48,732 nt of DNA, from positions 1 through 48,732 of the forward strand of contig CAIXWQ010000822.1 in assembly GCA_903923175.1 (NCBI GenBank). Reading direction: 5' to 3'. The notes beneath the pieces are model-generated. The model saw only the letters and a program-made list of their open reading frames with translations, was not told where the DNA came from and searched no databases. Made by a program: the position numbers and the translations under genes. The stretch is from an uncultured delta proteobacterium. Lineage in GTDB: Bacteria; Myxococcota_A; Polyangia; Polyangiales; JADJMO01. This document shows, one piece after another, positions 1 through 42,896 of this stretch (position 1 is the first letter of the stretch; every line of letters starts with the position of its first letter).

Positions 1-457
1 CCGCGGCGGGCGGCGGCGGCGCGGGCGGCGGCGCCATCGGCGCCGGCGAGGCCGCGCCGTACCCGCCGAACGGCGGGATGATCCGCGACAGCCCGCTCGC
101 CAGTCCGCCCGCGAGCCCACCGAAGGGCGCGAGCTGCGTCAGCGCGCCCGCGCCGCTGCGCACCTGCAGGTAGACCTCGAGCGCCCAGGTGACGTAGCGC
201 CCGAAGAACTCGGCGAGGGCGTCGTCGCCGAGCCGCACGAGCTGCACCAGCAGCGGCAGCGGCAGCAGCTTGCCGGCGCCGCGCCCCTCCAGGAGGATCT
301 GCGCGATCGTCGCGTGGGTCAGGTCCTCGTTCGTCTTCGCGTCGACCACGCGCACGTCGGCGCCCCGACGGAGCGAGTCCGCGAGCTCCTCGAGCGTGAT
401 GTAGCGGCTCTCCTCGGTGTCGTAGAGGCGGCGGTTGCCGTACTTCTTCACGAGCAT
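1..457 (-). CDS. phaR: PHA synthesis/accumulation regulator PhaR (partial, runs off the left end)
   Basis: Not in the ORF track. My minus-strand translation from ATG 457 reads MLVKKYGNRRLYDTEESRYITLEELADSLRRGADVRVVDAKTNEDLTHATIAQILLE..., which matches the KKYxNRRLYDT...S.YITL...V.DAKT.EDLT N-terminal DNA-binding domain of PhaR. It ends in a Pro-rich tail. Confidence 0.92.
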   Translation of the reverse strand, partial: MLVKKYGNRRLYDTEESRYITLEELADSLRRGADVRVVDAKTNEDLTHATIAQILLEGRGAGKLLPLPLLVQLVRLGDDALAEFFGRYVTWALEVYLQVRSGAGALTQLAPFGGLAGGLASGLSRIIPPFGGYGAASPAPMAPPPAPPPPAA

Positions 458-510
458 GGTGCGGTGCGAAGCATAGCGCCCAGGCCGCCCGGACGGAAAC
501 GATGCGCCGT

Positions 511-525
511 TGGTGCGCCGCAACA
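511..525. promoter_or_regulatory. Putative PhaR operator box 1 (TGGTGCGCCGCAACA)
   Basis: TGC-N3-GCA core with ACA flank, in the phaR/lipoprotein divergent intergenic region. It matches three other boxes in the window. Confidence 0.6.
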
Positions 526-577
526 ATCGTCGCCTTGACCGGGCTCGTTCTCCGCGTTAACTCGCTGAAACCCGCCG

Positions 578-592
578 TGGTGCGGCGCACAA
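578..592. promoter_or_regulatory. Putative PhaR operator box 2 (TGGTGCGGCGCACAA)
   Basis: Same consensus as boxes 1, 3 and 4, in the same intergenic region as box 1. Confidence 0.6.
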
Positions 593-808
593 AATAGGGG
601 GCGTGGCGATGTCGGGCCTGACGCGATCGGTTCGGACGAGGGCGAGGCGCGCGGCGGCGTGCGACGCGACCTCTTTCGCCCCGGGCACGCGTCTCGACCA
701 GCTCGGCGGTACCAGGACGGCGCGGATCGACGCGCACCTCGGTATCCTGGCGTCACGCTTCCTCGCCGTGTCGCTCCCTTCGTCCGCCGTCGCCTGAGAG
801 AAACCACC

Positions 809-1831
809 ATGCGTCGCACTTCATCGTCGTTCGTCGCGCAGCTCTCTCTGTTCTCGTCGCTGTCGCTGTCGCTGGCGGCGATCGGCGCGCTGGCGAGCGG
901 CTGCTCGGCCGGCAAGGAGTCCATCGTCGAGACCTGCAACCTCGGCTCGGACTGCGCCTCCGGGATCTGCAGCTCGGCGGGGGTCTGCGTCCCGCCGCCC
1001 GACGCGGCGATCGACACCGGCAGCACGGTCGACACCGGCTCGCCGGACACGGCGGTCGCCGATGCCCCGGCCGACGCCAAGGCCGACACGCAGGCGAGCG
1101 ACGCGCCGAGCACCACCTGCGTCCCCAACAACGACTTCGTGATCACGCCGCAGGAGCTGCCGCTCGGCCCGGGGCTGAAGGCGACGTACCGAACGGCGAC
1201 GACCGTCACCGTCGACACCACCGGCGCCGCGCAGGCCGACGGCACGCGCAAGTGGGACTTCTCCAAAGCGCTGGCGGGCGACACCGACGTGCTGCTCGTC
1301 ACCTCGTCCCCGACCGGAACCTGGTGGGCGAGCTCGTTCCCGACCGCGACCTACGCGGTGCCGCTCTCGAGCACCACCACCGTGCTCGGCGTCTTCAAGC
1401 TCGACGCGGCGGCGCTCTCGCTGCTCGGCGTGGTGTCGCCGACCGACACGACGCTCACCACGAAGACCAACATCGCCTACGGCACGCCGGTCCCCGTCAC
1501 GAAGTTCAACCTCGCGATGGGGAGCAAGTGGACCACGACCTCGCAGGTGACCGGCACCTACAACGGGGTCTCGCCCTACATCTACACGGAGAAATACGAC
1601 ATCTCCGTCGACGCGAAGGGGCAGCTGACGACCCCCTACGGCACCTTCCCGGTGCTGCGCGTGAGCACGCTGCTCACCAAGACGATCGGCCTCGTGGTCA
1701 CCTACACCCGGACGGCAGGCTACATGGCCGAGTGCTTCGGCACTGTCGCCTCGGCCGTCTCCAGCGCGGGCACGAGCGACCCCGGCGCCGAGTTCGCCAG
1801 CGCCGCCGAGCTCCGGAGGCTCGCGCCATGA
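809..1831 (+). CDS. Myxobacterial lipoprotein of unknown function (paralog of 4421-5287)
   Basis: ATG 809 follows GAGAG. Signal peptide with lipobox ALASGC, a short Cys-rich segment, an Asp/Thr/Ala linker and a beta-rich domain ending AECFG...AAELRRL, which is shared with 4421-5287. Confidence 0.8.
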   Translation: MRRTSSSFVAQLSLFSSLSLSLAAIGALASGCSAGKESIVETCNLGSDCASGICSSAGVCVPPPDAAIDTGSTVDTGSPDTAVADAPADAKADTQASDAPSTTCVPNNDFVITPQELPLGPGLKATYRTATTVTVDTTGAAQADGTRKWDFSKALAGDTDVLLVTSSPTGTWWASSFPTATYAVPLSSTTTVLGVFKLDAAALSLLGVVSPTDTTLTTKTNIAYGTPVPVTKFNLAMGSKWTTTSQVTGTYNGVSPYIYTEKYDISVDAKGQLTTPYGTFPVLRVSTLLTKTIGLVVTYTRTAGYMAECFGTVASAVSSAGTSDPGAEFASAAELRRLAP

Positions 1832-2806
1832 GCCGCCTCTCGGGCGCGTGCTCCACGATCGGCGCGGCGCTGATCGCGCTCGCCTCCTCGGGCTGCGCGA
1901 GCCTCGCCTTCCACCAGGGCGCGATGCCCGGCGAGCCGCCGAAGGCCACGTTCGCCGAGATCGACGGCGTGCGGGTTCGCTACGAGGACAAGGGCGAAGG
2001 GCCGCCGGTGGTGCTGGTCCACGGGTTCGCCTCGTCGCTCGAGAACTGGCTCACCGTCACGCCGACGCTCGCCAAGCACCACCGCGTGCTGTCGATGGAC
2101 CTCAAGGGGGTTCGGCTGGACCGATCGCCCCGAGGGGGACTACTCGCCGCCGGCGCAGGCCAAGCTCGTGCTCGCGCTGATGAAGCTGCGCGGCATCGAG
2201 CGCGCGGACGTCGTCGCGCACTCCTGGGGCGCGAGCATCGCGCTGCAGATGGCGATGCTCGAGCCCAAGCGCGTGAGCAAGCTCGCGCTCTACGACGCGT
2301 GGGTCTACGAGGAGCAGCTCCCCACGTTCTTCCTCTGGGCGCGCGCCGACGGCGTCGGCGAGTTCCTCTTCTCGACCTGGTACGAGGAGCGCGCCGACGA
2401 GCGCATCGCCTACGCCTTCTACGACAAGAAGAAGTGGCTGACCGAGCCCTTCATCGAGGCCGTGAGCCACATCTTCGATCGCCCCGGCACCGTCGCCGCG
2501 GCGCTCGCCGCCACGCGCGGTCAGCGCTTCTCGGAGTGGCAGGACAAGTACAAGACCATCCAGAACGAGGCGCTGCTCCTCTGGGGCCGCGAGGACGAGG
2601 TGACGCTGCTCTCGTTCGGCGAGCGGCTGCAGAAGGATCTCCCGCACGCCAAGCTGACCGTCTACCCGCTGTGCGGGCACTTCCCGATGATCGAGCAGGC
2701 CAGCGCCTCGACGGCCGATCTCGACGCCTACCTCGCCGCCTCGGCGCCGGTGACGGTGAACCCCGCCGACGCCGCGAAGAAATCCAAGAACGAGGAGGAG
2801 CCGTGA
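1828..2806 (+). pseudogene. Alpha/beta-fold hydrolase lipoprotein with a +1 frameshift at G5 run 2106-2110 (possibly a sequencing error)
   Basis: ATGA overlap with the upstream stop. The first frame gives lipobox LASSGC and GEGPPVVLVHGFASS...MDLKG. Removing one G restores DLKGFGWTDRPEGDYS and joins the frame holding AHSWG (Ser), GREDEV (Asp) and CGHFP (His). Confidence 0.85.
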
Positions 2807-4410
2807 GCGCGCGCTCGTCGATCCAGCGCCGCTTCGTCGCCGGCCTCTCCGCGTCGCTCGTCGGCCTCGTCGCGAGCCCGGCGCTCGCCACCGGCTTCTC
2901 CGACGCGGGGCAGGATCTCCACCCGCGCGACAAGACCGAGTTCGACGTCCACGGCTACTTCCGCACGCGCACCGAGGTCCTTTCGAACCTCGATCTCGAT
3001 CGCGGGCTCACCCCCTCGGGGCAGCCGCTCTTCCCGGTCCCCTCCGGCGGCGGGCAGAACTTCTTCTACGGCGACCTGCGCTTTCGCACCGACTTCGCGG
3101 CGTACGCCCTCGGCGGCGCCGTGGCGGTCAAGGCGCGCATCGACATGCTCGACGACGTGCCCATGGGCGGCAGCCCGCAGGGCGTGCCATCGGGGAGCAG
3201 CACGCAGGTCGCGGGCGGCGGCGGCGCCTTCCGCATCAAGCGCGCCTGGGGCGAGGCGCGCACGCCGATCGGCATCGTCGCGGCCGGCCGCATGGGCAAC
3301 GCGTGGGGGCTCGGCATGCTCGCCAACGGCGGCGACTGCCCCGACTGCGACAGCGGCGACGCGCAGGACCGCATCGCGTTCGTGACCGCGGTCGGCGGGC
3401 TGATCTGGGCCGCGGCCTACGACCTCTCGTGGATCGGCCCGACCGACTGGCGCAAGGACGGCGTCCGTCAGCTCGGCTGGGCGCCGTCGACCGACGTGCA
3501 CACCGTGACGTTCGCGGCGATGCGCTGGAACGACGACCTCGCGCACGAGCGCCGCAAGGCCGCCGGCAAGGCGACGGTGAACTACGGCGCGTACCTGTCG
3601 CACCGCTGGCAGACCGACGACGCGCCGTACGCGTACCTGCCGATCGCGGCCTCGGCGACGCCCGGCACCTCTCCGGTGATGGCGCGCGGCTTCACCGCGA
3701 CCGCGATCGACGGCTGGCTGCGGTTCGTCGCCCCCGGCATCCGCGTCGAGGTCGAGGGGGCCGTGCTCACCACCACCATCGCGCAGCCGTCGCTGCTGCC
3801 GGGCGTCAGCTCGAACCACGACGTCAAGGGGACGCAGATCGGCGTCGCGCTCGAGAGCGAATTCGGCGAGCCGACCGACGCGTTCTCGGGCGGCCTCGAC
3901 ATGGGCTTCGCGAGCGGCAACGACGCGCCGGGCTTCGGCGTGACGAGCGATCCGACCGCGCCGCTCGCCAAGAAGGGCGATCTCGACGGCATCCAGATCG
4001 ACCTGTCGAACCCGAACCAGCGCCGGGCCGACGCCTTCCGCTTCCACTCGGACTACCGCGTCGATCGCATCCTGTTCCGCGAGATCATCGGCACCGTCAC
4101 CGGCGCCGCCTACGTCCGCCCGCACGCGCGGTTCGATCTGTTCAAGGTCGGCACCGGCGCGCTGCGCGCGATGGTCGCCGCCATCGGCTCCTTCGCCGAC
4201 TACACGCAGAACGCGCCGGGGCAGAAGAAGCCCCTCGGGATCGAGATCGATCCGACGCTCGCCTACACGAGCCACGACGGCTTCGGCCTCGCGCTCGAGT
4301 ACGCGGTGCTCTTCCCGCTCGCCGGCCTCGACAACCCCTCGGTGGGGGCTGCGGGCCTCACGGCCAAGCCGGCGCAGCTCTTCCGGCTGCGCCTCGCGTA
4401 CGCGTTCTGA
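2803..4410 (+). CDS. TIGR04551-type Myxococcales outer-membrane beta-barrel protein
   Basis: GTG start overlaps the upstream stop (GTGA) after GAGGAG. Signal peptide, HGYFRTR, GRMGNAWGLGMLANGGDCPDCDSGD and FRFHSDYRVDRILFREIIGTV motifs, and an OMP-like C-terminus RLRLAYAF. Family assigned from memory of these motifs. Confidence 0.75.
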   Translation: MSARSSIQRRFVAGLSASLVGLVASPALATGFSDAGQDLHPRDKTEFDVHGYFRTRTEVLSNLDLDRGLTPSGQPLFPVPSGGGQNFFYGDLRFRTDFAAYALGGAVAVKARIDMLDDVPMGGSPQGVPSGSSTQVAGGGGAFRIKRAWGEARTPIGIVAAGRMGNAWGLGMLANGGDCPDCDSGDAQDRIAFVTAVGGLIWAAAYDLSWIGPTDWRKDGVRQLGWAPSTDVHTVTFAAMRWNDDLAHERRKAAGKATVNYGAYLSHRWQTDDAPYAYLPIAASATPGTSPVMARGFTATAIDGWLRFVAPGIRVEVEGAVLTTTIAQPSLLPGVSSNHDVKGTQIGVALESEFGEPTDAFSGGLDMGFASGNDAPGFGVTSDPTAPLAKKGDLDGIQIDLSNPNQRRADAFRFHSDYRVDRILFREIIGTVTGAAYVRPHARFDLFKVGTGALRAMVAAIGSFADYTQNAPGQKKPLGIEIDPTLAYTSHDGFGLALEYAVLFPLAGLDNPSVGAAGLTAKPAQLFRLRLAYAF

Positions 4411-4420
4411 GAGGTCGACG

Positions 4421-5287
4421 ATGCGGCTCCCCAAGCTCCACACGATCCTGTCACTGCTGCCGATCCTCGCGACGGCGCTCGCGCTCACGCAGGTGGGCTG
4501 TGGCACCAACGTCACCGCGGGCGGGCACGACGCCTACGTCGGCGGCGAGGTCGCGCCGCTGCAGTGCGCGCCCAACGTCGACGGCGTGCTCACGGCCAAC
4601 GAGCTGCTGACGGTGTTCGACACGCCGGTGAGCTACCTCGAGAACCCGGCCGGCAAGACCCGCACGGTCGACGTCGTCGGGGTGACCGCCAAGAACGGCG
4701 CGATCACCTGGGACTTCGGCGCCGACTACGCCGACGACGCCGCGCTCAGCGTGACGGTCACCACGCTCACCGGCAAGTGGTACGCGGCCTCGTTCCCCGG
4801 CGGGCAGTTCGTCACGCCGCAGGACGCCGCGCACACGCTCGAGGCCATCTATCGCCGCGACGACGCGGGGGTGTACCTGCTAGGCCTCGCCTCCACCGAC
4901 CCGGCGCCGAAAGAGGGGCAGACGCTGATCGTCTACGACGCCGGGATCGTGGTGGCGAAGTTCCCCATGTCGGCCGGCACGACCTGGGTCGCCAAGGGGA
5001 ACGTGATCAACGGCAAGATCCGTGGCCTCCAATACGCCGGCGCCGACATCTACGAGGTCACCGACGACGCCGTCGGGCGCGTGGTGCTCCACGACTTCAC
5101 GTTCGACGCCGTGCACCGCGTCCGCACGAAGGTCACCGTCTCGCCCTCGGCGGGGGCGACCGTCGTCACGCGGCAGGTCTCGTTCTTCGCCGAGTGTTTC
5201 GGCGAGATCACGCGCGTCGTCTCGCAGAACAACGAGCCGAACGCCGACTTCACCACCGCCGCGGAGCTGCGGCGGCTCGGCAAGTAG
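4421..5287 (+). CDS. Myxobacterial lipoprotein of unknown function (paralog of 809-1831)
   Basis: GAGG SD and lipobox LTQVGC. Shares C.PN.D.V.T..EL, WDF, W.A.SFP and FAECFG...F..AAELRRL with 809-1831. Confidence 0.82.
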   Translation: MRLPKLHTILSLLPILATALALTQVGCGTNVTAGGHDAYVGGEVAPLQCAPNVDGVLTANELLTVFDTPVSYLENPAGKTRTVDVVGVTAKNGAITWDFGADYADDAALSVTVTTLTGKWYAASFPGGQFVTPQDAAHTLEAIYRRDDAGVYLLGLASTDPAPKEGQTLIVYDAGIVVAKFPMSAGTTWVAKGNVINGKIRGLQYAGADIYEVTDDAVGRVVLHDFTFDAVHRVRTKVTVSPSAGATVVTRQVSFFAECFGEITRVVSQNNEPNADFTTAAELRRLGK

Positions 5288-5365
5288 CGACCTCTCTCTC
5301 GCGCGCCCGCGGAGCGCGCGGGGCTCACGCCCGCGCGCCCCGAGGTGACGCCGCCCCTCGGAGGA

Positions 5366-6391
5366 TCAGAGCTCGCCCCAGCGCACGACGCTGGCGGCCC
5401 ACGCGTAGCCGATGCCGGCGGCGATCATGCACACGACGGTGCCGGGCTTGATCTTCCCCGCCTCGAGCCCGAGGTGGAGCGAGAGCACCTGATCGATCTG
5501 GCCGATGTGGCCGTAGTCGCGCAGGTAGGTCGTCTGGTCCTCGCGCAGGCCGAGCTGCTCGAGCAGCGACTTGTGCATCGACGGCTTGAAGTGGAGCACC
5601 GCGAGGTAGCCGATGTCCTTGCGGGTCAGCTTCGACTTCTCGAGCGCGCGGTCGATGCACTGGAACCAGTTCGGCATCGAAACGTCGTTGAGCCGGTTCT
5701 TCATGTGCTCGGGGTCGAGCAGGTCGAGCGACTTGTAGGCCTGAGCGAGGTTCTCGCTGGTGATCGGGGCCACGGTGCCGCCGATGCGACAGCCGGCGTC
5801 GCGGGCGAGGCTGCCGTCGGTGATGACGTGGGTGCCGAGCAGCAGGTTCTTGCGGGCGCCGCGCTCGAGGATCACCGCGCAGGCGCCGGCCGCCAGGTTG
5901 AACATCATCGACATGGTCGAGTTCGAGAAGTCGACGTGGTCGCCGTTGCGGTAGCCGCCGACGACCATGATCGAGCGCACGTCGGGATCGGCGAGGAGCA
6001 TGTCCTTCGCCATCTTCATCGCCGCGAGGAGCGAGCAGCAGCGCTGCTGCACGTCGATCGCCCACGCGTTGCGGGCGCCGATGCGCTCCTGGATGTAGAT
6101 GCCCGAGGTGGTGAGCGGGTACTCCTTCCACTCCTCGCCGATGCACAAGATCACGTCGATCTTCATCGGGTCGTAGCCGGTGCGGGCCAGGCAATCGAGC
6201 CCGGCGCGCGCGCCCATCTCCTGCGTGCCGTCGTCGGGGCCGGGGATGCTCTTCTGGTCGAAGCCGAGCTTCTCCCGGATGGCCTTCTCGGTCCATTTGC
6301 CGCCCGTCGCCGCCGCGACCTCGGCGGCGCTGATCGTCGTCTTCGGGATGTAGAGGCCGTAGCCGACCAGGCCGACAGTGTTCTCGCTCAT
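5366..6391 (-). CDS. 3-oxoacyl-ACP synthase III (FabH/KAS III)-like protein, Cys-His-His type
   Basis: GYGLYIP N-terminus, DVQQRCCS catalytic Cys region, LHFKPS, YGHIGQID and AAGIGYAWAA C-terminus. Confidence 0.88.
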   Translation of the reverse strand: MSENTVGLVGYGLYIPKTTISAAEVAAATGGKWTEKAIREKLGFDQKSIPGPDDGTQEMGARAGLDCLARTGYDPMKIDVILCIGEEWKEYPLTTSGIYIQERIGARNAWAIDVQQRCCSLLAAMKMAKDMLLADPDVRSIMVVGGYRNGDHVDFSNSTMSMMFNLAAGACAVILERGARKNLLLGTHVITDGSLARDAGCRIGGTVAPITSENLAQAYKSLDLLDPEHMKNRLNDVSMPNWFQCIDRALEKSKLTRKDIGYLAVLHFKPSMHKSLLEQLGLREDQTTYLRDYGHIGQIDQVLSLHLGLEAGKIKPGTVVCMIAAGIGYAWAASVVRWGEL

Positions 6392-6557
6392 GTCCGTGCC
6401 CTCGCTGGTGCCCTGCGCGCGTCCCGGACTCCCACGCCACCGAGCGGCCGAGTCGCCGTCGCGGGGGGGCCGGAGGGGGCGCGTGGGCCGTCCTCCGACG
6501 AAGGTCGATGGGGTCGGCCCGGCCGATGCGCGCGCCAGCCATCTCTATCCATGGTTT

Positions 6558-6572
6558 TGTTGCAGTGCAACA
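6558..6572. promoter_or_regulatory. Putative PhaR operator box 3 (perfect palindrome TGTTGCA-G-TGCAACA)
   Basis: AT-rich perfect inverted repeat with a TGC-N3-GCA core, in the fabH-like/MFS divergent intergenic region. Confidence 0.7.
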
Positions 6573-6750
6573 TCAAATGAGCGGCGCGCCCTTTGGAGTC
6601 CGGGGCGTGGACACCTGAGACGTCGGCCCCTGGCGCGGGGTCACTCACCGTCATGACGCGCATATTTGTGCGTCAAACGCGCGATGCGTGCGCGCTCGCC
6701 CCGCGTCGGATTCCCATTGATCTCTCTCGCGAGCCTGGCAGAGTCCGCGC

Positions 6751-6765
6751 TTGTGCGGCGCAACA
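6751..6765. promoter_or_regulatory. Putative PhaR operator box 4 (TTGTGCGGCGCAACA)
   Basis: Same consensus, about 45 nt upstream of the MFS start. Confidence 0.6.
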
Positions 6766-6769
6766 CGCG

Positions 6770-6785
6770 CGGCACGAAATACGCA
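6770..6785 (+). promoter_or_regulatory. Possible sigma-54 -24/-12 promoter (CGGCACGAAATACGCA)
   Basis: GG-N10-GC spacing with a GGCACG -24 element, immediately after box 4. The -12 element lacks the usual TT. Confidence 0.3.
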
Positions 6786-6809
6786 ATCGCGGGCGCGGGA
6801 CTCGATTCC

Positions 6810-8078
6810 ATGGCGTTCAAGGCGAGCCACAAGGTCGGGCTGGCGCTCGTGCTTTGCTACTTGGTGGCGTGGCTCGATCGCATGGCCATCAGCATGACCA
6901 TCCCCTCGATCCAGAGGGAGCTCGGGGTGGGTGCGCGCGAGACGGGCTGGATGGTCAGCGCCTTCTTCCTCGGCTACGCGCTCTTCCAGATCCCGGGCGG
7001 CACGCTCGCCGATCGGATCGGCCCGCGCCGCGTGATCCTCGCCGCCCTGGCCTGGTGGTCCGTGTTCACGGCGCTCACCGGGCAGGTCGCGGGGCTCGCC
7101 TCGATGCTCGGCACGCGCTTCCTCTTCGGCATCGGCGAGGGGGTCTTCCCCGCCTCCGTCTGGAAGGTGCTCGGCAACTGGTTCACCAAGAAGAACCGGG
7201 CCACCGCGAACGCCCTCGTCATCTCCTCGATCGCGCTCGGCCCCGCGCTCACGCCGTGGGTGCTGCGCCCCATCCTCGCGCGCTGGGGTTGGCGCAGCTG
7301 CTTCCTCTTCCTCGGCGCCATGGGCGTCGTCTGCGTGCTCGTCGCCCACCGGTTCATCGCCAGCTCGATCCGCGAGGCGCGCGCGGTGCCGGCCGAGGAG
7401 CTCGCCGAGTACGAGGCCGACGAGCGCTCGCAGGCGGCCAACGCCGAGGGGACCATCCAGACCAGCAGCCTCGGCGGGCTGCTGCGCGTGCCGATCGTGT
7501 GGGTGCTGTTCCTGGTGGCCTTGGTCGCCAACGTCGCCATGTACGGCTGGCTGACCTGGCTCCCGACCTATCTCGAGAAGGTGCGCGGGCTCGATCTCAA
7601 GGGGATGACGGTGGGCGCCTCGCTGCCGTTCGTCTTCGGGACCATCGGCTGCGTGCTCGGCGGCTGGGTCTCCGACCGGTTCTTCCGCGGTCGCCGCAAG
7701 TACCTCATCGTCGCCTGCCTCGTGCTCGGCGGGCTCTGCCTGTTCGCGTTCACGCGCGTGCAGGACAAGACGATGTACATGGTCGCCCAGTGCGCGGCCG
7801 GCTTCCTGCTCTTCATGGGGTCGGCGGCCATCTGGGCGCTCCCCATGATCCTGCTGCCGACGCGCCTGATGGGCGCCGGCTCGGGCTTCATCAACACCGG
7901 CGGGCAGATCGGCGGCGTGCTCTCCGGCGTCCTCATCGGCGGGTACGTCTCGTACCGCGGTGAGAACTACGCCGCCGGCTTCGAGCTGATGCTGGGCGCG
8001 CTGGCCGTCGCCGCGCTGCTCGTGCTCGTCGGAATCCACGAGTCCGCGCTCCCGAGGAGCCCCGAGCCCGCGCGCTGA
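6810..8078 (+). CDS. MFS transporter (anion:cation symporter-like, organic acid)
   Basis: About 12 hydrophobic segments, WLDRMAIS, GGTLADRIGPRR (motif A), RFLFGIGEG and GGWVSDRFFRGRRK. Start chosen at ATG 6810. Confidence 0.92.
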   Translation: MAFKASHKVGLALVLCYLVAWLDRMAISMTIPSIQRELGVGARETGWMVSAFFLGYALFQIPGGTLADRIGPRRVILAALAWWSVFTALTGQVAGLASMLGTRFLFGIGEGVFPASVWKVLGNWFTKKNRATANALVISSIALGPALTPWVLRPILARWGWRSCFLFLGAMGVVCVLVAHRFIASSIREARAVPAEELAEYEADERSQAANAEGTIQTSSLGGLLRVPIVWVLFLVALVANVAMYGWLTWLPTYLEKVRGLDLKGMTVGASLPFVFGTIGCVLGGWVSDRFFRGRRKYLIVACLVLGGLCLFAFTRVQDKTMYMVAQCAAGFLLFMGSAAIWALPMILLPTRLMGAGSGFINTGGQIGGVLSGVLIGGYVSYRGENYAAGFELMLGALAVAALLVLVGIHESALPRSPEPAR

Positions 8079-8150: not shown

Positions 8151-9686
8151 ATGAAGCAGATCCTTTCCCTCGCCGTCGCCCTCCCCTTCGCGATGGTCGC
8201 CGCGTGCAGCAGCAGCGACACGACGGTCACGCCCGCCACCGACTCGGGCACCGACACGAACGTGATCACCGACTCCGGCAACGACGTCGCCACCGACACG
8301 CCGGTCGTGAACCCGCGCGCCGAGGCCTGCAAGACGGTGATCGAAGCGAAGAAGGCCAAGTACGCGACGGACCTCGCGACCTGGAAGAGCGACGACCTCG
8401 ACTCGATGTCGGCCACCAAGAACCCGCCCAAGGACTCGACGGGCGCCGTGGTCGGCCCCGACCACACGCTGTTCGCCGGCCGCTATCGCGACGACCTGAC
8501 CAAGCACCCGGGCTGCAAGCCGCAGACGGCCTACACCGGCAAGCTGTTCCTCAACACCAGCAACGAGGCCACCGTCGCCCCGGGCATCCCGGTGCAGGCG
8601 ACCACGTCGACGGCGCCGGGCTACGTGCCGGGCTTCGCCTGCGCGGCCAAGGAGTACTCGATGCCGACCGGCACCACGGTCGACGCGAGCAAGCCGATCG
8701 TCATCCTGGTCCACGGCAACAGCTCCAACCCGAACTCGTGGGAGGAGTTCTCGAACAGCAAGCTCACCGACGCCGATGGCGCCCTCGCCGGCGTGCAGCT
8801 CAAGTCGGCGTCCTCCTTCGAATTCACCGTCGACGCGACCACGCGCGAGATGCTCGCCTCCAAGCTCGTCAAGAAGGGCTACCGCGTCATCGCCGTCGAC
8901 CTGCGCACGGATCTCACGAAGACCCTCACCGGCGCGAACCTCACGGTCACGTACACCGACGCGGCGTACGGCGACGCGATCGGCAACGTCGACCACGGCT
9001 GGTCGGTGCCGATCCTCCAGTCGCTGATCAAGTCGGTGATGCTCGCCAACCCGACCGCCAAGGTCTCGCTGGTCGGCCACTCGCTCGGCTACACGGTCAT
9101 CCAGGACTCGATGCGTCGCCTCTACAAGGAGTACAAGGCCGGCACCTCGACGCTGAACCCCTTCGCGCACCTCAAGAGCGTGGTGCTCGCCTCGGGCGCG
9201 GCGCACGGCGTGGCGAACGGCACGTACAACTGCGGCAAGTACGTCACGATGCGCGGTTCGGTGAACTGCGAGATGGGCGATCGCGGGACCTACGTCGCGA
9301 CCGCCTTCAACAAGATCAACAACGGCCCCGGCGACATCTTCGCGACGCCCTGCGCGGACGGCTCGTTCGCGTTCGGCGCGGCCGATCAGTGCGGCGGCAA
9401 CGTCGTCGACTACTCGACGATCACCATGAAGGATCCGACCAGCGGCGCGCTGCAGGACGAGTTCGTGTCGACGGCGGCGGCCCGCCTCGACATGGACAAG
9501 AACCAGACGCTCGCCGACGGCACGCTGACGATCCTCGATCCGGCGTGCGTCGACAACCACCTCGACCTGCTGTCGGACTTCGACGGCTCGGGCTTCTTCA
9601 TGGACGGCGCGCCGGGCTTCCTCGCGAACCACTTCGGCTCGATCCGCTCCGAGGCGGGCATGACCTTCGTCCTCGGCAAGCTGTGA
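8151..9686 (+). CDS. Secreted lipoprotein alpha/beta hydrolase, lipase class 2 / PhaZ7-like (candidate PHA depolymerase)
   Basis: AGGAG SD, lipobox MVAAC, PIVILVHGNSS oxyanion motif, GHSLG nucleophile, candidate Asp (QDEFV) and His (NHFGS), and several Cys. The hydrolase call is solid; the substrate is inferred. Confidence 0.7.
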   Translation: MKQILSLAVALPFAMVAACSSSDTTVTPATDSGTDTNVITDSGNDVATDTPVVNPRAEACKTVIEAKKAKYATDLATWKSDDLDSMSATKNPPKDSTGAVVGPDHTLFAGRYRDDLTKHPGCKPQTAYTGKLFLNTSNEATVAPGIPVQATTSTAPGYVPGFACAAKEYSMPTGTTVDASKPIVILVHGNSSNPNSWEEFSNSKLTDADGALAGVQLKSASSFEFTVDATTREMLASKLVKKGYRVIAVDLRTDLTKTLTGANLTVTYTDAAYGDAIGNVDHGWSVPILQSLIKSVMLANPTAKVSLVGHSLGYTVIQDSMRRLYKEYKAGTSTLNPFAHLKSVVLASGAAHGVANGTYNCGKYVTMRGSVNCEMGDRGTYVATAFNKINNGPGDIFATPCADGSFAFGAADQCGGNVVDYSTITMKDPTSGALQDEFVSTAAARLDMDKNQTLADGTLTILDPACVDNHLDLLSDFDGSGFFMDGAPGFLANHFGSIRSEAGMTFVLGKL

Positions 9687-9726: not shown

Positions 9727-11043
9727 ATGAATGCCAAACGGATGGTGGTCGGGGGCTTCACGCTGCTGCTCGCGGCGCCGGGCGTCGCGTCGGCCCAGGA
9801 GGTCGGCGTGACCCCCAGCACCGAGGTGGTCCAGCCCGCGGGCGCGGCGGTGCAGCCGCGCTTCGCTCTGTATTACGACGAGAAGACGGGCACGCTCGTC
9901 AAGCCCGTCCTCGGCATCGCCGGGGGGTACAACCTCGAGTACCAGCGCAACGCGTTCCCCGGACAGGACTACAAGCTCGACCCGCTGAGCACGACGCTCG
10001 CGGTCTTCTCGTTCGGGCTCGAGGGGAAGATCGGCAAGTTCGCGAGCTTCCACACCGAGCTCCGGCGCGATCCGGGCGCCTACGGCACCAGCGTCTGGGA
10101 GGGGACCATCTCCCTCACGGCGATGGACAACTACCTGAAGGTCCAGCACACGATCGCGGGCGTCACCGGGAGCGTCGCGGCCGGCATCGTCACCGATCCG
10201 GCGAGCACGGACTTCTTCTCGCTCCACATGACCGACCTCTTCATGGCCGACGCGTACAGCCGCACGACGCTGCTGCACGCGGGGTTCAACCGGGGCCAGG
10301 GGCTCGTCGGGCAGCTGAACTGGAAGTGGCTCACGCTCGGGATGGCGGCGTCGGCGGGCAACCCGCTGGCGTCGTCCACCTCGTTCGGCTTCGGCGGCAA
10401 GGTCTCGCCGATCGGCACGCTGATCGACTACCCCCGTCGCAGCATCAGCGGCGGCAACCCGCAGCCGGGCATGGAGCTCGTGCTGCTCTCTCCGTCGCTG
10501 ACGTTCGAGCACAAGTACGTCGACGCGAAGATCGCCTTCCAGAAGTACCGGGTCAGCGTCGACACCGAGTCGCACGACGACGTGCCGCTGCGCGGCGAGC
10601 TCTATCGCGCCTCGGTGCGCGGCAAGATCCCGCTGTTCGGGACGGTGCTGATGCCGTTCTTCAACTACGCGTGGCGCCGCAACGACATGATCCTGCAGGC
10701 GACCTCGAGCCCCGATCCGACCAAGCGGGATCCCGACGACTACACGGCCACGGTCGTCTCGGGTGGCCTCGACTGGAACGTGTTCGGGTTGAGCGGCGTG
10801 GGCGTGAACTACGGCGTCGTCACGAACAAGACGGGCCTCCAGCCGAAGAACCGCCAGCAGTACCTCAACGTGGGGGCGACCTGGTGGTTCACCAGCATCA
10901 CCTCCGTCGGCCTGCGCTACGCGCGCATGATGACGTCGACCGAGGGCACGGACACCGCGGGCGCTCCCAACGGCACGTTCGGCTTCGCCGACGGCATCAA
11001 GGATCGCGACTCGTTCTTCGTCACGATGCGACTGGTGCTCTGA
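9727..11043 (+). CDS. Putative outer-membrane beta-barrel/porin-like protein
   Basis: GGAGG SD, Sec signal ending ASA-Q, many amphipathic aromatic beta-strands and terminal strand DSFFVTMRLVL. Confidence 0.6.
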   Translation: MNAKRMVVGGFTLLLAAPGVASAQEVGVTPSTEVVQPAGAAVQPRFALYYDEKTGTLVKPVLGIAGGYNLEYQRNAFPGQDYKLDPLSTTLAVFSFGLEGKIGKFASFHTELRRDPGAYGTSVWEGTISLTAMDNYLKVQHTIAGVTGSVAAGIVTDPASTDFFSLHMTDLFMADAYSRTTLLHAGFNRGQGLVGQLNWKWLTLGMAASAGNPLASSTSFGFGGKVSPIGTLIDYPRRSISGGNPQPGMELVLLSPSLTFEHKYVDAKIAFQKYRVSVDTESHDDVPLRGELYRASVRGKIPLFGTVLMPFFNYAWRRNDMILQATSSPDPTKRDPDDYTATVVSGGLDWNVFGLSGVGVNYGVVTNKTGLQPKNRQQYLNVGATWWFTSITSVGLRYARMMTSTEGTDTAGAPNGTFGFADGIKDRDSFFVTMRLVL

Positions 11044-11230
11044 ACCGGTCGAGGGCGCCGGGCTTCGCGTCGTCGAACCCGGAGTCCTCCCTTCGACCCA
11101 TGGCCGAGCTCGACGGCGAGCTCCGCGAGTCGAGAACCCTGCGCGGCGAATTCGGGTACGATTCGCCGCGCTCCAACCACGAGCCGACGGCCCCCGCGCC
11201 GTGGCCGACCCATCGCGCGCGAGGTGCCGA

Positions 11231-12541
11231 ATGAGCCGCTGGAACGAAGTCCTGAGGCAGAAGACGATCTCCATCGAGGAGGCCGTCCGGATGGTGAAGT
11301 CCCACGACGACGTGATCGTGGGGCAGTGCGCCTCCGAGCCCCAGGGGCTGATGGGCAAGCTCCACCTCATCAAGGATCAGGTCGAGGACGTGAAGGTGTT
11401 CAGCGTGCTCACGCTGAACCCCTATCCGTTCTACATGACCGCCGAGATGAAGGGGCACTTCGAGCTCTGTAGCTGGTTCCACGCGCCGGGCTCGCGCGCG
11501 GCGCTGGCCGCGGGCGCCGGCACCGTGACCTACGTGCCGAACATGCTCCACCGCGCGGGGCTCGATCGCATGCACGCGAAGAAGCCGAACGTCTTCTTCG
11601 GCACGTGCACGCCGATGGACTCGAAGGGCTTCGTCTCGCTCTCGCTCGGCGTCACCTACGAGAAGGACGTCCTCGAGAACGCCGATCTGGTCATCCTCGA
11701 GATCAACGAGCGGCTCCCCCGCACCTTCGGCGACACCCACGTCCACGTGAGCGACGTGCACCACTTCGTCGAGAACACGCAGGAGGTCCCCTTCCTGCCG
11801 GCGCCGAACCCCGGCCCCACCGACCTCGCGATCGGCGACTACATCGCGGAGCTCGTGCCCGACGAGGCGACCATCCAGCTCGGGATCGGCGGCATCCCGA
11901 ACGCGGCGGCGCTCGCGCTCAAGTCGAAGAAGAACCTCGGCGTGCACACCGAGATGCTCGTCGACTCGATGATGGAGCTCTACGAGGCCGGCGTGATCAC
12001 GAACAAGAAGAAGGCGTTCATGAAGGACAAGTTCCTCTGCACCTTCGCCATGGGCTCACGCAAGCTCTACGACTGGCTCGACGACAACATGGCCGTCGAG
12101 TTCCGCCGCGGCGCGTGGGTCAACGATCCGTTCGTGCTCCGCCAGAACTCGAAGATGGTGTCGATCAACACCTGCTTGATGGTCGACTTCACCGGCCAGG
12201 TCGCGAGCGAGGGGATCGGCACGCAGCAGTACTCGGGCACCGGCGGCCAGGCCGACACGGCCATCGGCGCGCGCGAAGGCTACGACGGCAAGGGGAAGTC
12301 GATCATCGCCTGCGCCTCGACCGCCAAGAAGGGCACCGTCAGCACCATCTGCGCGACGCTCCCCGAGGGGACGCCCGTCACGCTCCACCGCGCAGACGTC
12401 GATCACGTCGTGACCGAGCACGGCATCGCCTATCTCCGAGGGCGCACGGTGCGCGAGCGCACCCGCGCGCTGATCGCCATCGCCGACCCGAAGTTCCGCG
12501 AGGAGCTCACGGCGAAGGCGCGAACGATCGGCTACCTCTGA
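11231..12541 (+). CDS. Acetyl-CoA hydrolase/transferase family CoA-transferase (4-hydroxybutyrate CoA-transferase-like)
   Basis: GAGGT SD. TIQLGIGGIPNA, LGVHTEM (catalytic Glu), SINTCLMVDFTGQVASE, SGTGGQAD and VVTEHGIAYLRG motifs. Confidence 0.93.
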   Translation: MSRWNEVLRQKTISIEEAVRMVKSHDDVIVGQCASEPQGLMGKLHLIKDQVEDVKVFSVLTLNPYPFYMTAEMKGHFELCSWFHAPGSRAALAAGAGTVTYVPNMLHRAGLDRMHAKKPNVFFGTCTPMDSKGFVSLSLGVTYEKDVLENADLVILEINERLPRTFGDTHVHVSDVHHFVENTQEVPFLPAPNPGPTDLAIGDYIAELVPDEATIQLGIGGIPNAAALALKSKKNLGVHTEMLVDSMMELYEAGVITNKKKAFMKDKFLCTFAMGSRKLYDWLDDNMAVEFRRGAWVNDPFVLRQNSKMVSINTCLMVDFTGQVASEGIGTQQYSGTGGQADTAIGAREGYDGKGKSIIACASTAKKGTVSTICATLPEGTPVTLHRADVDHVVTEHGIAYLRGRTVRERTRALIAIADPKFREELTAKARTIGYL

Positions 12542-12617: not shown

Positions 12618-12624
12618 TCCGCCC

Positions 12625-14091
12625 ATGTCCGACGAGAAGAGCGCCCCCGCCGCCCTGGGCGCGCAGCCGACGATGCCGATGCCGATGCCGATGATCGACG
12701 GGCTCGTGCGACGGACCAGCCAGGCCGTGCTCGGCAAGCTCGCGAGCGCGACCTCGCAGGTGGTGGAGGAGGCGCTGCGCGCCGCGCGGGCGAGCCTCTA
12801 CTTCACCAGCCACACGATCGACGGCAACGTCCTGCCGACCTTGAAGAGCCTCTCGGAGATCCGCCAGGACATCGAGGAGTCGTGGCTCGAGACCGTGAAC
12901 GGCAAGAAGCAGCTCGGCGAGCACCTCACCGACAGGGGGGGCCGCGTCGACGCGGGCCGTCGCTACAAGAAGCTGGTGCACGAGCTCGGTGGCTCGCTCT
13001 TCGGCTCGGCGGTCTACGACGACGAGGAGGTGCTGCTCGCCAACGACGTCTACAAGCTCAGCTACCTCCCGCCGAAGCAGGGCGTCCCGGTCGCCGAGAC
13101 GGCGGTCTTCTTCCTCGCGGGGTTCATCCCCTACGGCGATCGCCTGTTCCGCTTCCTGCCCGAGGCGAACCTCTTCGATCGGTTCCTCGAGCGCGGCATC
13201 CCCGTCTACCTGATGGAGCTCGTCGGGGACAAAGACGAGATGCGCAACATGGGCCAGGTCACGGTCGATCGGCAGATCGACTGGATCGACGAGATGGCGG
13301 GCGTCGCGTTCCGGCACAACCGTGAGCGCAAGATGATCGCCATCGGCTACTGCGGCAGCGGGCTGCAGCTCGTCGCCTACCTGGCCGCCCGCACGCGCGA
13401 CGCCGACGCGAAGTTCAAGACGGCGAGCATCTTCGTCACGCCGGTCGACGCGGCCAAGTGCAACATCCTCGCGGAGATGGTGGCGAACCTCCCGCGCTCG
13501 CTGATCTGGACGGCCTTCCAGCGCTCGCAGCTCCTCGGCGGCTATCTCAAGGGGATCGAGATGTGGGCCGCGCTCGACACCTCGCTGAAGAACGTCTTCG
13601 CGAAGACCTCGATCGGGCGCTTCGCCTCCGGCTGGAAGAAGCCTGCGTACGCGAAGGTGCACTTCCTCGCCGACCTCGAGCCGAAGCAGCGCTTCGAGCT
13701 CGCCGCCGCCTACTGGATCTCGGTGAAGAACGCCGAGCGCTACCCGCTCCCCGTCGATCTCGCGCGTCGCGCGAGCTACCTGTACGACAAGGGGGTCGGC
13801 GCGGACGGCTACCTCGGCTTCGAGCACCGCGGAAAGCGCGTGACGCTGACGTCGATCCTCACCGACTCGAGCCTCCGCGTGACGGCCTTCTTCGCCGGCC
13901 TCGACCCGCTCGTGCAGCCCGAGTCGGGGCACGTGCTCAAGAAGATCCTCGGCGATCGCTACCAGCAGATCTCGCACCCGACCGCCGCGCACGTCTCGTA
14001 CATCTGCTTCCCCGCGCAGTGGGACACGGCGAACCCGGGGGCGTTCCTCCCCAACCCGATCGACGTGCTGCTCGCCGACTACGCGAAGTAG
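12625..14091 (+). CDS. Divergent PHA synthase (PhaC)-like alpha/beta protein with Cys nucleophile
   Basis: IGYCGSG lipase box (PhaC has GYCxGG). YLPP...FFLAGFIPYGDRLFRFLPEANLFDRFLERGIPVYLMEL aligns with the PhaC P.INKYYILDL.PENS.V...G..VF segment. Also FVTPVD, AGLDPLV (Asp) and AAHVSY (His). Context is phaR plus a CoA-transferase. Confidence 0.72.
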   Translation: MSDEKSAPAALGAQPTMPMPMPMIDGLVRRTSQAVLGKLASATSQVVEEALRAARASLYFTSHTIDGNVLPTLKSLSEIRQDIEESWLETVNGKKQLGEHLTDRGGRVDAGRRYKKLVHELGGSLFGSAVYDDEEVLLANDVYKLSYLPPKQGVPVAETAVFFLAGFIPYGDRLFRFLPEANLFDRFLERGIPVYLMELVGDKDEMRNMGQVTVDRQIDWIDEMAGVAFRHNRERKMIAIGYCGSGLQLVAYLAARTRDADAKFKTASIFVTPVDAAKCNILAEMVANLPRSLIWTAFQRSQLLGGYLKGIEMWAALDTSLKNVFAKTSIGRFASGWKKPAYAKVHFLADLEPKQRFELAAAYWISVKNAERYPLPVDLARRASYLYDKGVGADGYLGFEHRGKRVTLTSILTDSSLRVTAFFAGLDPLVQPESGHVLKKILGDRYQQISHPTAAHVSYICFPAQWDTANPGAFLPNPIDVLLADYAK

Positions 14092-28377: not shown

Positions 28378-34044
<5,667 letters not shown>

Positions 34045-34120
34045 GAGACGTCCTCCTGGCGCACTCGCGCCCGCGCTCCTCCGCGGAATCCATCCGCAGA
34101 GGAGCCCTCCGTGACGTACG

Positions 34121-42835: not shown

Positions 42836-42896
42836 GACGGAGCCTCGGGAGTGGAACTCGGTGACGGAATCGGTCGCGGGGGGCGGGCCCTGGCGT

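Follow-up and report, generated by a model that had tools for sequence, protein, structure and literature searches.

Genes and palindromes at the locus

The window (the whole stretch of DNA analysed, 48,732 nucleotides) begins with the first 152 codons of a phaR gene (positions 2–457, minus strand). The gene runs off the left contig end and continues on contig C1084, whose 5' fragment matches the C-terminus of a same-genus PhaR; the two contig ends have 12 nt in common. The encoded protein matches PF07879 (PHB_acc_N, 5.2e-25), and with the ORF cut by the contig end its TIGR01848 score of 92.3 bits is under the 109.45 cut-off. Divergent from phaR, on the plus strand, an operon starts with a lipoprotein gene of unknown family (809–1831) that shows a GC3 frame signal and encodes a lipobox signal sequence; 8 of the 16 orthologous loci have a homologue of this gene in the same divergent position. 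It is followed by an alpha/beta-hydrolase lipoprotein gene (1828–2806) with a frameshift at the G-run 2105–2109: the two halves match hydrolase models in two different frames, and relatives carry the hydrolase in a single frame. The third gene (2803–4410) overlaps the preceding one at GTGA and encodes an exported protein with a signal peptide, assigned to the TIGR04551 family at 3.7e-87 and 293.4 bits, just below the cut-off of 300. A paralogue of the first lipoprotein gene (4421–5287), matching the same regions of relatives at about 31% identity, completes the operon.

A FabH-like (KAS III) gene of the PRK06840 type (5366–6391, minus strand; NF005308, 7.7e-135; Pfam ACP_syn_III) lies divergent from a plus-strand row headed by an MFS transporter gene (6810–8078; PF07690, 1.3e-63). 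Next in the row is an esterase/lipase-like lipoprotein (8151–9686) with a lipobox signal sequence, weak Pfam matches to DUF676 and Abhydrolase_6, and Atlas feature matches to Lipase_2 clusters at 0.98. The porin-like outer-membrane beta-barrel protein that follows (9727–11043) has a signal peptide and no Pfam match; Atlas features (0.98) and structure (TM 0.70) relate it to Porin_4 / Porin_O_P. The row ends with a CoA-transferase of the acetyl-CoA hydrolase/transferase family (11201–12541; PF13336, 1.7e-57; TIGR03948, 8.7e-76, under cut-off) and a PhaC-like protein of an unnamed family (12622–14091), recognized by its fold and by invariant C244, D428 and H457. Intergenic gaps in the row range from 40 to 157 bp, with 157 bp between the porin and CoA-transferase genes, and we infer that the row is a continuous operon.

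The preliminary description had placed four 15-mers of a common consensus, TKKTGCNNNGCAMMA, in the two divergent intergenic regions. Direct reading of the sequence finds all four at the positions given, and they are the only matches to the consensus in the window. Box A (TGGTGCGCCGCAACA, 511–525) lies 54 bp from the phaR ATG, between two divergent promoter regions, and box B (TGGTGCGGCGCACAA, 578–592) lies further towards the lipoprotein operon. Box D (TGTTGCAGTGCAACA, 6558–6572), 167 bp upstream of the FabH-like ATG, is a perfect palindrome with the top PWM score of the whole genome, 30.1. Box E (TTGTGCGGCGCAACA, 6751–6765) is located 193 bp from box D and 45 bp upstream of the MFS ATG, within a longer inverted repeat (6745–6772). 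All four sites match the core TKNTGCRNYGCANMA of the R. eutropha PhaR palindrome YTKNTGCRNYGCANMAR, which was deduced from footprinted sites (PMC12849132, excerpt). They also fit YGCRNYGCR, the EMSA-validated AniA/PhaR motif of S. meliloti, for which a tabulated site contains TTGTGCGGCGCACAA (PMC12542648, excerpt).

A bare core, TGCGAAGCA, is present at 465–473 as had been described, but probably represents the wrong register of another site: it overlaps box C (CTTCGCACCGCACCA, 457–471, minus strand), a degenerate box that abuts the phaR ATG and has two mismatches to TKKTGCNNNGCAMMA. Since 457–471 aligns with the strong box TATTGCACTGCAACA of the relative G006 (alignment A1), the phaR region holds three boxes (A, B and C) instead of the two first counted. 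For the lipoprotein operon we place a putative -35-like hexamer, TTGACC (535–540, plus strand), and, 17 nt after it, a putative -10-like hexamer, TAACTC (558–563, plus strand). TTGAC is invariant in all ten sequences of A1, as is the TA of the -10-like hexamer, and both elements are located between boxes A and B; box B would thus lie just 3' of the -10, near the expected transcription start. The strict sigma-70 consensus scan returned 0 promoters in either intergenic region, so this box-to-promoter geometry rests on the one alignment.

Genomic placement and conservation of the boxes

In the window the consensus TKKTGCNNNGCAMMA occurs four times where 0.01 matches are expected, a count attained by none of 100 dinucleotide shuffles, with the proviso that the consensus was derived from the same four sites that it counts there. 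Genome-wide (10.7 Mb, 72% GC) there are 10 matches versus 1.5–4.4 expected under order-1 to order-4 Markov models, and nine of them are intergenic. The raw count of the published core TKNTGCRNYGCANMA is mildly enriched, given 13 matches against 9.07 expected (order-3 Markov). What distinguishes these matches is placement rather than raw count: 11 of the 13 are intergenic and adjoin PHA-linked genes, and pairs no more than 200 bp apart were found four times versus about 0.003 expected. The bare core TGCNNNGCA, with 26 occurrences in the window compared to 14.6 +/- 3.8 expected, is weakly above chance and by itself weak evidence.

The four boxes of the window contig, in the phaR and FabH-like/MFS regions, are among these 11 intergenic matches. 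Two boxes precede a phasin-like gene on C1084, where TTGACA and TATGTT elements surround them, and two are found on C41 at a phasin-like gene followed by a PhaC N-terminus. Further matches lie at PhaZ (C159; TIGR01849, 2.3e-172), between a class III PhaC C-terminus (TIGR01836, 7.4e-49) and a FabG/PhaB-like SDR (C1334), and at a second FabH-like gene (C783). The two matches in coding DNA are on C671 and at C1084:1453, and one perfect palindrome in coding DNA falls within an MCP gene (C1303). The phasin-like genes have no Pfam or NCBIfam match; we use the label on the basis of small size, location (after phaR and beside phaC) and 37% identity to a paralogue. The genome-wide check suggested along with the first description thus came out in its favor: the boxes are nearly confined to the surroundings of phaR, both FabH-like genes, class III phaC, phaZ, the FabG/PhaB-like reductase and the phasin-like genes. 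Because the same box marks core PHA genes on other contigs, both window regions appear to belong to one PHA regulon.

Conservation among relatives, also suggested as a check, came out in favor of the description as well. Of 16 orthologous loci, 15 have a box with PWM of at least 19 in the 150 bp preceding phaR; in the remaining one, boxes are 500 bp distant and adjoin the divergently transcribed lipoprotein gene. All ten phasin homologues of relatives have a box with PWM of at least 21 within about 150 bp upstream. In the ten-genome alignment A1, with a mean column identity of 50%, boxes A and B stand out as conserved islands. Equivalents of box A are seen at about -57 to -68 in eight loci (L008–L011, L013, L016, L019 and L023). 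Equivalents of box B lie about -124 to -135 from phaR, also in eight loci (L008–L013 and L016 of family f1, and L022 at the order level), two of them weak (PWM 10.6–10.8). Among 40 relatives, none has an orthologue of the FabH-like gene, and conservation of its intergenic region could therefore be followed only in four distant Myxococcota MAG loci with a 75–79% identical FabH-like gene; a variant box is present in two of these four.

The PhaC-like protein and related gene rows

The PhaC-like protein has no sequence match in Pfam, NCBIfam or PDB, and thus none to PF07167 or TIGR01836/01838/01839. It contains a GYCGSG box, which fits G-x-C-x-G with a Cys nucleophile, and C244, D428 and H457 of its family are invariant across 37 sequences. 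The best Foldseek matches of its AF2 model (pLDDT 91.8) are PHA synthases: 9knk at 2e-11, followed by 5xav, 5t6o and 5hz2, with E values for these PhaC structures between 2e-11 and 2e-8. The Cys box with putative Asp and His partners and these structural matches give the protein the features of a PhaC-type alpha/beta-hydrolase domain.

Homologues of the PhaC-like gene connect the two operons of the window independently of the boxes. The genome G299 carries a row of lipoprotein, hydrolase, TIGR04551 (1.4e-102), lipoprotein paralogue and PhaC-like genes, and G378 has the same four homologues in a row with a gap gene outside the scan; both belong to a myxobacterial family other than that of the source genome. 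No box was detected in the 18 and 11 kb around these TIGR04551/PhaC-like rows. A box of PWM 25.7 lies about 110 bp upstream of the PhaC-like gene in G221, and the MAG locus L043 has TGCTGCGGCGCAGCA at -114 ahead of a row of FabH-like, CoA-transferase and PhaC-like genes.

Predicted control by PhaR

PhaR is the bacterial sensor of PHB (bioplastic) storage granules. We consider it probable (roughly 0.8), on sequence grounds and by analogy, that the PhaR encoded at the window's left end uses the four palindromes and the degenerate fifth at 457–471 as its operators. The regulon proposed in the preliminary description (phaR, the TIGR04551 operon, the FabH-like gene and the MFS-to-PhaC-like row) is supported by genomic specificity, conservation and fit to published PhaR palindromes, each computed directly like the motif itself, with PhaR binding as the predicted step. 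The PHA-synthase-like fold of the PhaC-like protein, and the rows that join its homologues to the TIGR04551 module, lend independent support. The operators indicate co-regulation with PHA metabolism; the direction of the pathway, salvage in the preliminary description, is not something that they show. If the analogy to R. eutropha and S. meliloti is followed, dimers of PhaR would sit on the boxes while no PHB granule surface is free, and would leave them when granules form. Box A would act between two back-to-back promoters, box B would cover the beginning of the four-gene TIGR04551 operon, and box C would cover the phaR leader and mediate autoregulation. Box D would serve the FabH-like gene, and box E the row of MFS, esterase, porin, CoA-transferase and PhaC-like genes.

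More tentatively, PhaR might have recruited a second, non-canonical polyester system here, in which imported hydroxy-acids or oligomers are activated by the CoA-transferase and polymerised by the PhaC-like enzyme; we would sooner doubt this than assume it. The porin, lipoprotein esterase and MFS transporter would take up the hydroxy-acids or oligomers, for instance from the storage polymer of lysed prey. The CoA-transferase would activate these imports, perhaps with KAS III feeding in too, and the PhaC-like enzyme of the unnamed family would polymerise them. The TIGR04551 envelope module would join the same machine, since another family has this module and the PhaC-like gene in a single row. 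If true, this would amount to a new PHA synthase class and a granule-sensing salvage route.

The main competitor to uniform control, which we take seriously but hold to be rather unlikely, accepts PhaR binding and makes its logic mixed: repression by PhaR would apply to some units (phasin, phaR) and activation or fine-tuning to others (FabH-like, MFS row, TIGR04551 operon), or just one gene of each divergent pair would be controlled, and a single co-regulated regulon would then be an overstatement. The sign of regulation at each unit is likewise a prediction. In R. eutropha, PhaR is a repressor of phaP1 and an activator of phaP3 (PMC12849132, excerpt), and motif-bearing genes of S. meliloti occur in activated modules (PMC12542648, excerpt). 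Here, a long stretch separates box D from the FabH-like start codon, the spacing of boxes D and E is too wide for them to flank one core promoter, and the porin/CoA-transferase gap could hold an internal promoter. Against this, box E is close to the MFS start, and the boxes of the phaR region and of both phasin-like genes would match the phaP1 repressor geometry as given in the R. eutropha excerpt, with one site upstream of the putative -35 and one at the putative -10/TSS.

Much less probable is that the boxes are real PHA-regulon operators read by another protein, either the second PhaR-like protein of the source genome (C472) or an unrelated regulator, with the window PhaR doing something else. 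Two PhaR-like genes are indeed present in the source genome (G000) and in most family members, but every one of the 16 loci with an orthologue of the window phaR has boxes near that gene (40 matches with PWM of at least 13 in 50.7 kb). The other paralogue type has 0 such matches in 13 loci (40.2 kb), there is no box upstream of the C472 gene, and the motif equals the PhaR palindromes in the published excerpts. Finally, short palindromes are abundant in GC-rich genomes (31 are found in the two intergenic regions), and with some nine matches expected for the published core one could regard the sites as chance inverted repeats or a dispersed repeat element of no regulatory role. We give this almost no weight: the window has four matches where 0.01 are expected, the perfect-arm form TGTTGCNNNGCAACA occurs four times versus 0.12 expected, and the sites are placed in pairs beside PHA genes and kept across genera while their flanks diverge.

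Comparison with known PhaR systems

Alpha- and beta-proteobacteria have well-characterized PhaR operators. For Myxococcota, our literature search turned up no report of a PhaR regulon, and the predicted one would carry a known switch into another phylum with its DNA motif essentially unchanged. Used as a label, the predicted operators would assign TIGR04551, two lipoproteins, a porin-like barrel, a PRK06840-type KAS III and a Pfam-less PhaC-like family to PHA metabolism. Through them, the storage programme of this uncultured myxobacterium would take in one set of genes for uptake and polymerisation and another for the envelope, with the PhaC-like family as a candidate new PHA-synthase class and the row as candidate uptake-driven polyester storage.

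The phaP1 and phaP3 operators of R. eutropha (Cupriavidus necator) H16 have the same palindrome, YTKNTGCRNYGCANMAR there versus TKKTGC-RNY-GCAMMA here. The two systems also share sites upstream of phasin genes and the two-site geometry, on putative promoters in our case (PMC12849132, excerpt). R. eutropha is a beta-proteobacterium, whereas the host here is an uncultured member of the Myxococcota known from sequence alone, and unlike in R. eutropha the predicted regulon includes genes for lipoproteins, TIGR04551, porin, esterase, MFS transporter, KAS III and a PhaC-like protein of an unnamed family. With S. meliloti it shares two motif copies at phasin promoters, a site at the depolymerase gene phaZ, and a regulon that reaches beyond PHB genes and includes transporters (PMC12542648, excerpt). 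Long AT-rich arms, a feature of the S. meliloti motif, are not evident here, where the flanking columns are mixed. Autoregulation is weak in S. meliloti according to the same excerpt, whereas no feature here is better conserved than the boxes at phaR.

PhaR-type boxes in the window and in the source genome

The four 15-mers of the preliminary description lie exactly where it placed them (boxes A, 511-525; B, 578-592; D, 6558-6572; and E, 6751-6765), as does the 9-mer core at 465-473. Their consensus, TKKTGCNNNGCAMMA, has exactly these four matches in the whole window, against 0.01 expected, and a count of four was reached in none of 100 shuffles. As this consensus was built from the same four sites, we placed the weight on tests that are independent of them. 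All four sites fit the R. eutropha PhaR core TKNTGCRNYGCANMA, including its purine-N-pyrimidine centre; the full R. eutropha motif, YTKNTGCRNYGCANMAR, derives from sites mapped by footprinting (PMC12849132). A study of S. meliloti gives the motif WNWD2NYGCRNYGCRNH2WNW, lists ACATTGTGCGGCGCACAAAGT in its site table and reports that mutating the palindrome abolishes EMSA shifts (PMC12542648).

The genes flanking the boxes were mapped in this window (contig C822, 71.7% GC) from frame-specific GC3 together with Pfam and NCBIfam. Boxes A and B separate phaR (2-457, minus strand, PF07879 at 5.2e-25, truncated by the contig end) from a row of four tightly packed plus-strand genes. The first (809-1831) encodes a lipoprotein and the second (1828-2806) an alpha/beta-hydrolase lipoprotein; the third (2803-4410) encodes a TIGR04551 protein, which at 293 bits is just under the cut-off of 300, and the fourth (4421-5287) a paralogue of the first gene's product. 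The successive junctions are an ATGA overlap, a GTGA overlap and a 10-nt gap. The reading frame of the hydrolase lipoprotein shifts at a run of five Gs (2105-2109, in the region 2095-2125); its orthologues in relatives have one uninterrupted frame, and the change is either a homopolymer sequencing or assembly error or a genuine pseudogene. Boxes D and E lie between a minus-strand FabH-like gene of the PRK06840 type (5366-6391, 7.7e-135) and a divergent row that encodes, in order, an MFS transporter (6810-8078), an esterase/lipase-like lipoprotein (8151-9686), a porin-like barrel (9727-11043), a CoA-transferase (11201-12541) and, as the last gene listed, a PhaC-like protein (12622-14091). Elsewhere in the window, the minus strand of 28378-42952 has a pair of very long, high-GC3 frames that look coding, about 1,933 and 2,943 codons in length.

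Could the sites be chance palindromes of a GC-rich genome? Across the 10.7-Mb draft (1,422 contigs), the published core has 13 matches where 9.07 are expected, and TKKTGCNNNGCAMMA has 10 where Markov models of order 1 to 4 expect 1.5-4.4. The bare count of the looser pattern is thus unimpressive, and placement is what counts. The perfect-arm form TGTTGCNNNGCAACA occurs four times against 0.12 expected, and we rejected chance on this excess together with that in the window. Furthermore, four pairs among the 13 core matches lie less than 200 bp apart, where a random scatter of 13 sites would give about 0.003 pairs by our own arithmetic.

Eleven of the 13 core matches are intergenic and lie by PHA-linked genes. 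Besides the four in the window, two precede an 88-aa phasin-like gene on contig C1084; two on C41 have a 92-aa gene on one side and, on the other, a 98-aa phasin-like gene with a PhaC N-terminus (PF07167, 4e-8) after it; one on C159 precedes PhaZ (TIGR01849, 2.3e-172); one on C1334 lies between a class III PhaC C-terminus (TIGR01836, 7.4e-49) and a FabG/PhaB-like reductase; and one on C783 adjoins a second FabH-like gene, which also has TGTTGCTCTGCAACA 9 bp upstream of its start. The remaining two (on C671 and at C1084:1453) are in coding-like DNA. A perfect palindrome, TGTTGCAGAGCAACA, was also seen at C1303:14962-14976 (locus L004) within the coding sequence of a methyl-accepting chemotaxis gene; it may be a chance occurrence or an intragenic site.

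Conservation at phaR and phasin genes

To score other genomes we used a symmetrised position weight matrix trained on nine intergenic sites of the source genome, G000. The window-type phaR is present in 16 further genomes (E <= 1e-35), and at 15 of these loci the 150 bp upstream of the gene contain a box scoring at least 19; at the remaining one, L021, two boxes lie 500 bp away on the upstream side, beside a homologue of the divergent lipoprotein gene. At six of the eight loci from the source's own family (L008-L012 and L016), two boxes lie 67-69 bp apart, one at roughly -124 to -135 and the other at roughly -57 to -68 relative to phaR. Both boxes stand out as conserved islands in a 10-sequence upstream alignment with a mean column identity of 50%, and between A and B the alignment has an invariant TTGAC and an invariant TA. 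These fall on the plus strand within TTGACC (535-540) and TAACTC (558-563), 17 nt apart, which we infer to be the -35 and -10 elements of the lipoprotein operon; a strict sigma-70 consensus scan returned no promoter in either intergenic region. With this assignment, box A would sit just upstream of the -35 element and box B around the predicted transcription start, the same geometry as that described for R. eutropha phaP1. Finally, the 15 bases immediately preceding the phaR ATG (457-471, CTTCGCACCGCACCA on the minus strand) align with a strong box of genome G006, TATTGCACTGCAACA, and so appear to be a third, degenerate box. The 465-473 core noted previously is present, but its register differs from that of the aligned box, and we dropped it as the third site in favour of 457-471.

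Homologues of the C1084 phasin-like gene lie immediately downstream of phaR in relatives, and a box scoring at least 21 is found within about 150 bp upstream of phasin-like homologues at all ten relatives' loci and at both loci of G000. The source assembly appears to break at this very place. The first 39 codons of C1084 (L003, 1-122) match the C-terminus of a same-genus PhaR, and its end has 12 bases in common with that of the window (1-60), so C1084 is very probably the continuation of the window. In full, the locus would then read TIGR04551 operon, three boxes, phaR, two boxes and phasin. A class III PhaC likewise seems to be split over contig ends, with its N-terminus on C41 (L001, 2-190) and its C-terminus on C1334 (L006, 1-705); the two contigs look like pieces of one locus made up of phasin, class III phaC, boxes and the FabG/PhaB-like reductase.

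The source genome carries a second PhaR-like gene (C472:4308-4900), about 44% identical across the DNA-binding domain, whose product has a charged, coiled-coil-like tail; this paralogue type is found in most relatives. No PhaR box lies within 700 bp upstream of it. At score >= 13, the 16 window-type phaR loci (50.7 kb) yielded 40 matches, 21 of them no more than 160 bp upstream of phaR and most of the remaining 19 in the spacer between phaR and phasin, while 13 loci around the more distant paralogue type to which C472 belongs (40.2 kb) yielded none. This distribution makes the window PhaR the likelier reader of the boxes.

The FabH-like/MFS region and the PhaC-like protein

None of 40 relatives has an orthologue, at E <= 1e-60, of the FabH-like gene that lies beside boxes D and E; at E <= 1e-25 the same search gave a single match, 27% identical. 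In a scan of species genomes, the gene does occur at four other Myxococcota MAG loci (75-79% identity) and in many Firmicutes and Tenericutes (61-67%), often beside a CoA-transferase (for example L047). Given this patchy distribution, it was perhaps acquired by transfer. The G000-trained matrix found no site scoring at least 16 at the seven closest FabH-like loci (L041-L046 and L068; 71-79% identity), and its six matches among all 80 loci (L041-L120) come from AT-rich genomes and lack full cores. TGCTGC...GCAGCA variants upstream of distant FabH-like genes were seen only by a relaxed core search, which returned perfect palindromes at -120 in L041 (TGCTGCAACGCAGCA) and at -114 in L043 (TGCTGCGGCGCAGCA), a weak site in L042, and no such palindrome in L068, L044 or L046. 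G000 itself has the TGCTGC half-site (at phaZ, the reductase and C783), and the published PhaR consensus permits it. In L043 the FabH-like gene is followed in its row by a CoA-transferase (84% identity) and then by a PhaC-like gene (63%).

We also considered a PhaR-controlled small RNA between box D and the MFS gene. This idea was dropped, as Rfam gave no match at E <= 1 over 400-6900 and the predicted fold of the 238 nt from box D to the MFS start was no more stable than those of shuffled sequences (z = -1.06). A 9-bp inverted repeat with a 4-nt spacer (6654-6675, TGACGCGCA / TGTGCGTCA) lies between the two boxes and may serve another regulator.

The last gene of the MFS row had been called phaC. 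Its 489-aa product has no sequence match in Pfam, NCBIfam or PDB, and its 52 homologues are all unnamed. Its AlphaFold model, a confident one (pLDDT 91.8), has as best Foldseek matches the PHA synthases of Aeromonas caviae, Chromobacterium and C. necator (E 2e-11 to 2e-8, 14-18% identity), and C244 (in GYCGSG), D428 and H457 are invariant in a 37-sequence alignment of the family. The protein is therefore PhaC-like by predicted fold and residues, yet it falls outside the named PhaC families.

The PhaC-like family is rare: of 400 other genomes sampled from the phylum, three have a match (E <= 1e-30). One of them, G299, belongs to another family, and a co-directional row in it (L133, C226 4632-10781) encodes the lipoprotein, the hydrolase, TIGR04551 (1.4e-102), the lipoprotein paralogue and, last, the PhaC-like protein. 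G378 (L134, C776) has homologues of the lipoprotein, hydrolase, lipoprotein-paralogue and PhaC-like genes in the same order, around a gap gene at the TIGR04551 position. Through gene order, these rows independently connect the two window operons. The 18 kb and 11 kb examined from G299 and G378, respectively, contain no box; as their phaR orthologues themselves have no boxes by the G000-trained matrix, that lineage is uninformative on the operator. Upstream of the G221 PhaC-like gene, by about 110 bp, lies TTGTGCAGCGCAACA (score 25.7), and G221 phaR also has boxes.

A predicted PHA regulon

Altogether, the PhaR-type motif, its placement at PHA genes and its conservation uphold the proposed co-regulation: the window boxes are predicted PhaR-type operators that assign the two divergent regions to the PHA regulon. 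The salvage idea is consistent with the genes present; in it, the porin, esterase and MFS transporter would serve import, the CoA-transferase activation and the PhaC-like enzyme polymerisation, with the TIGR04551 envelope module as a possible partner. The operators themselves indicate only co-regulation with PHA metabolism and not the direction of carbon flow; PhaR can activate as well as repress (PMC12849132). Our literature search, which did not cover subscription journals, found neither a paper on a myxobacterial PhaR regulon nor one on TIGR04551. The main value of the operator set lies in the genes that it labels. It is real and conserved, of a kind known from other bacteria and new in this phylum.
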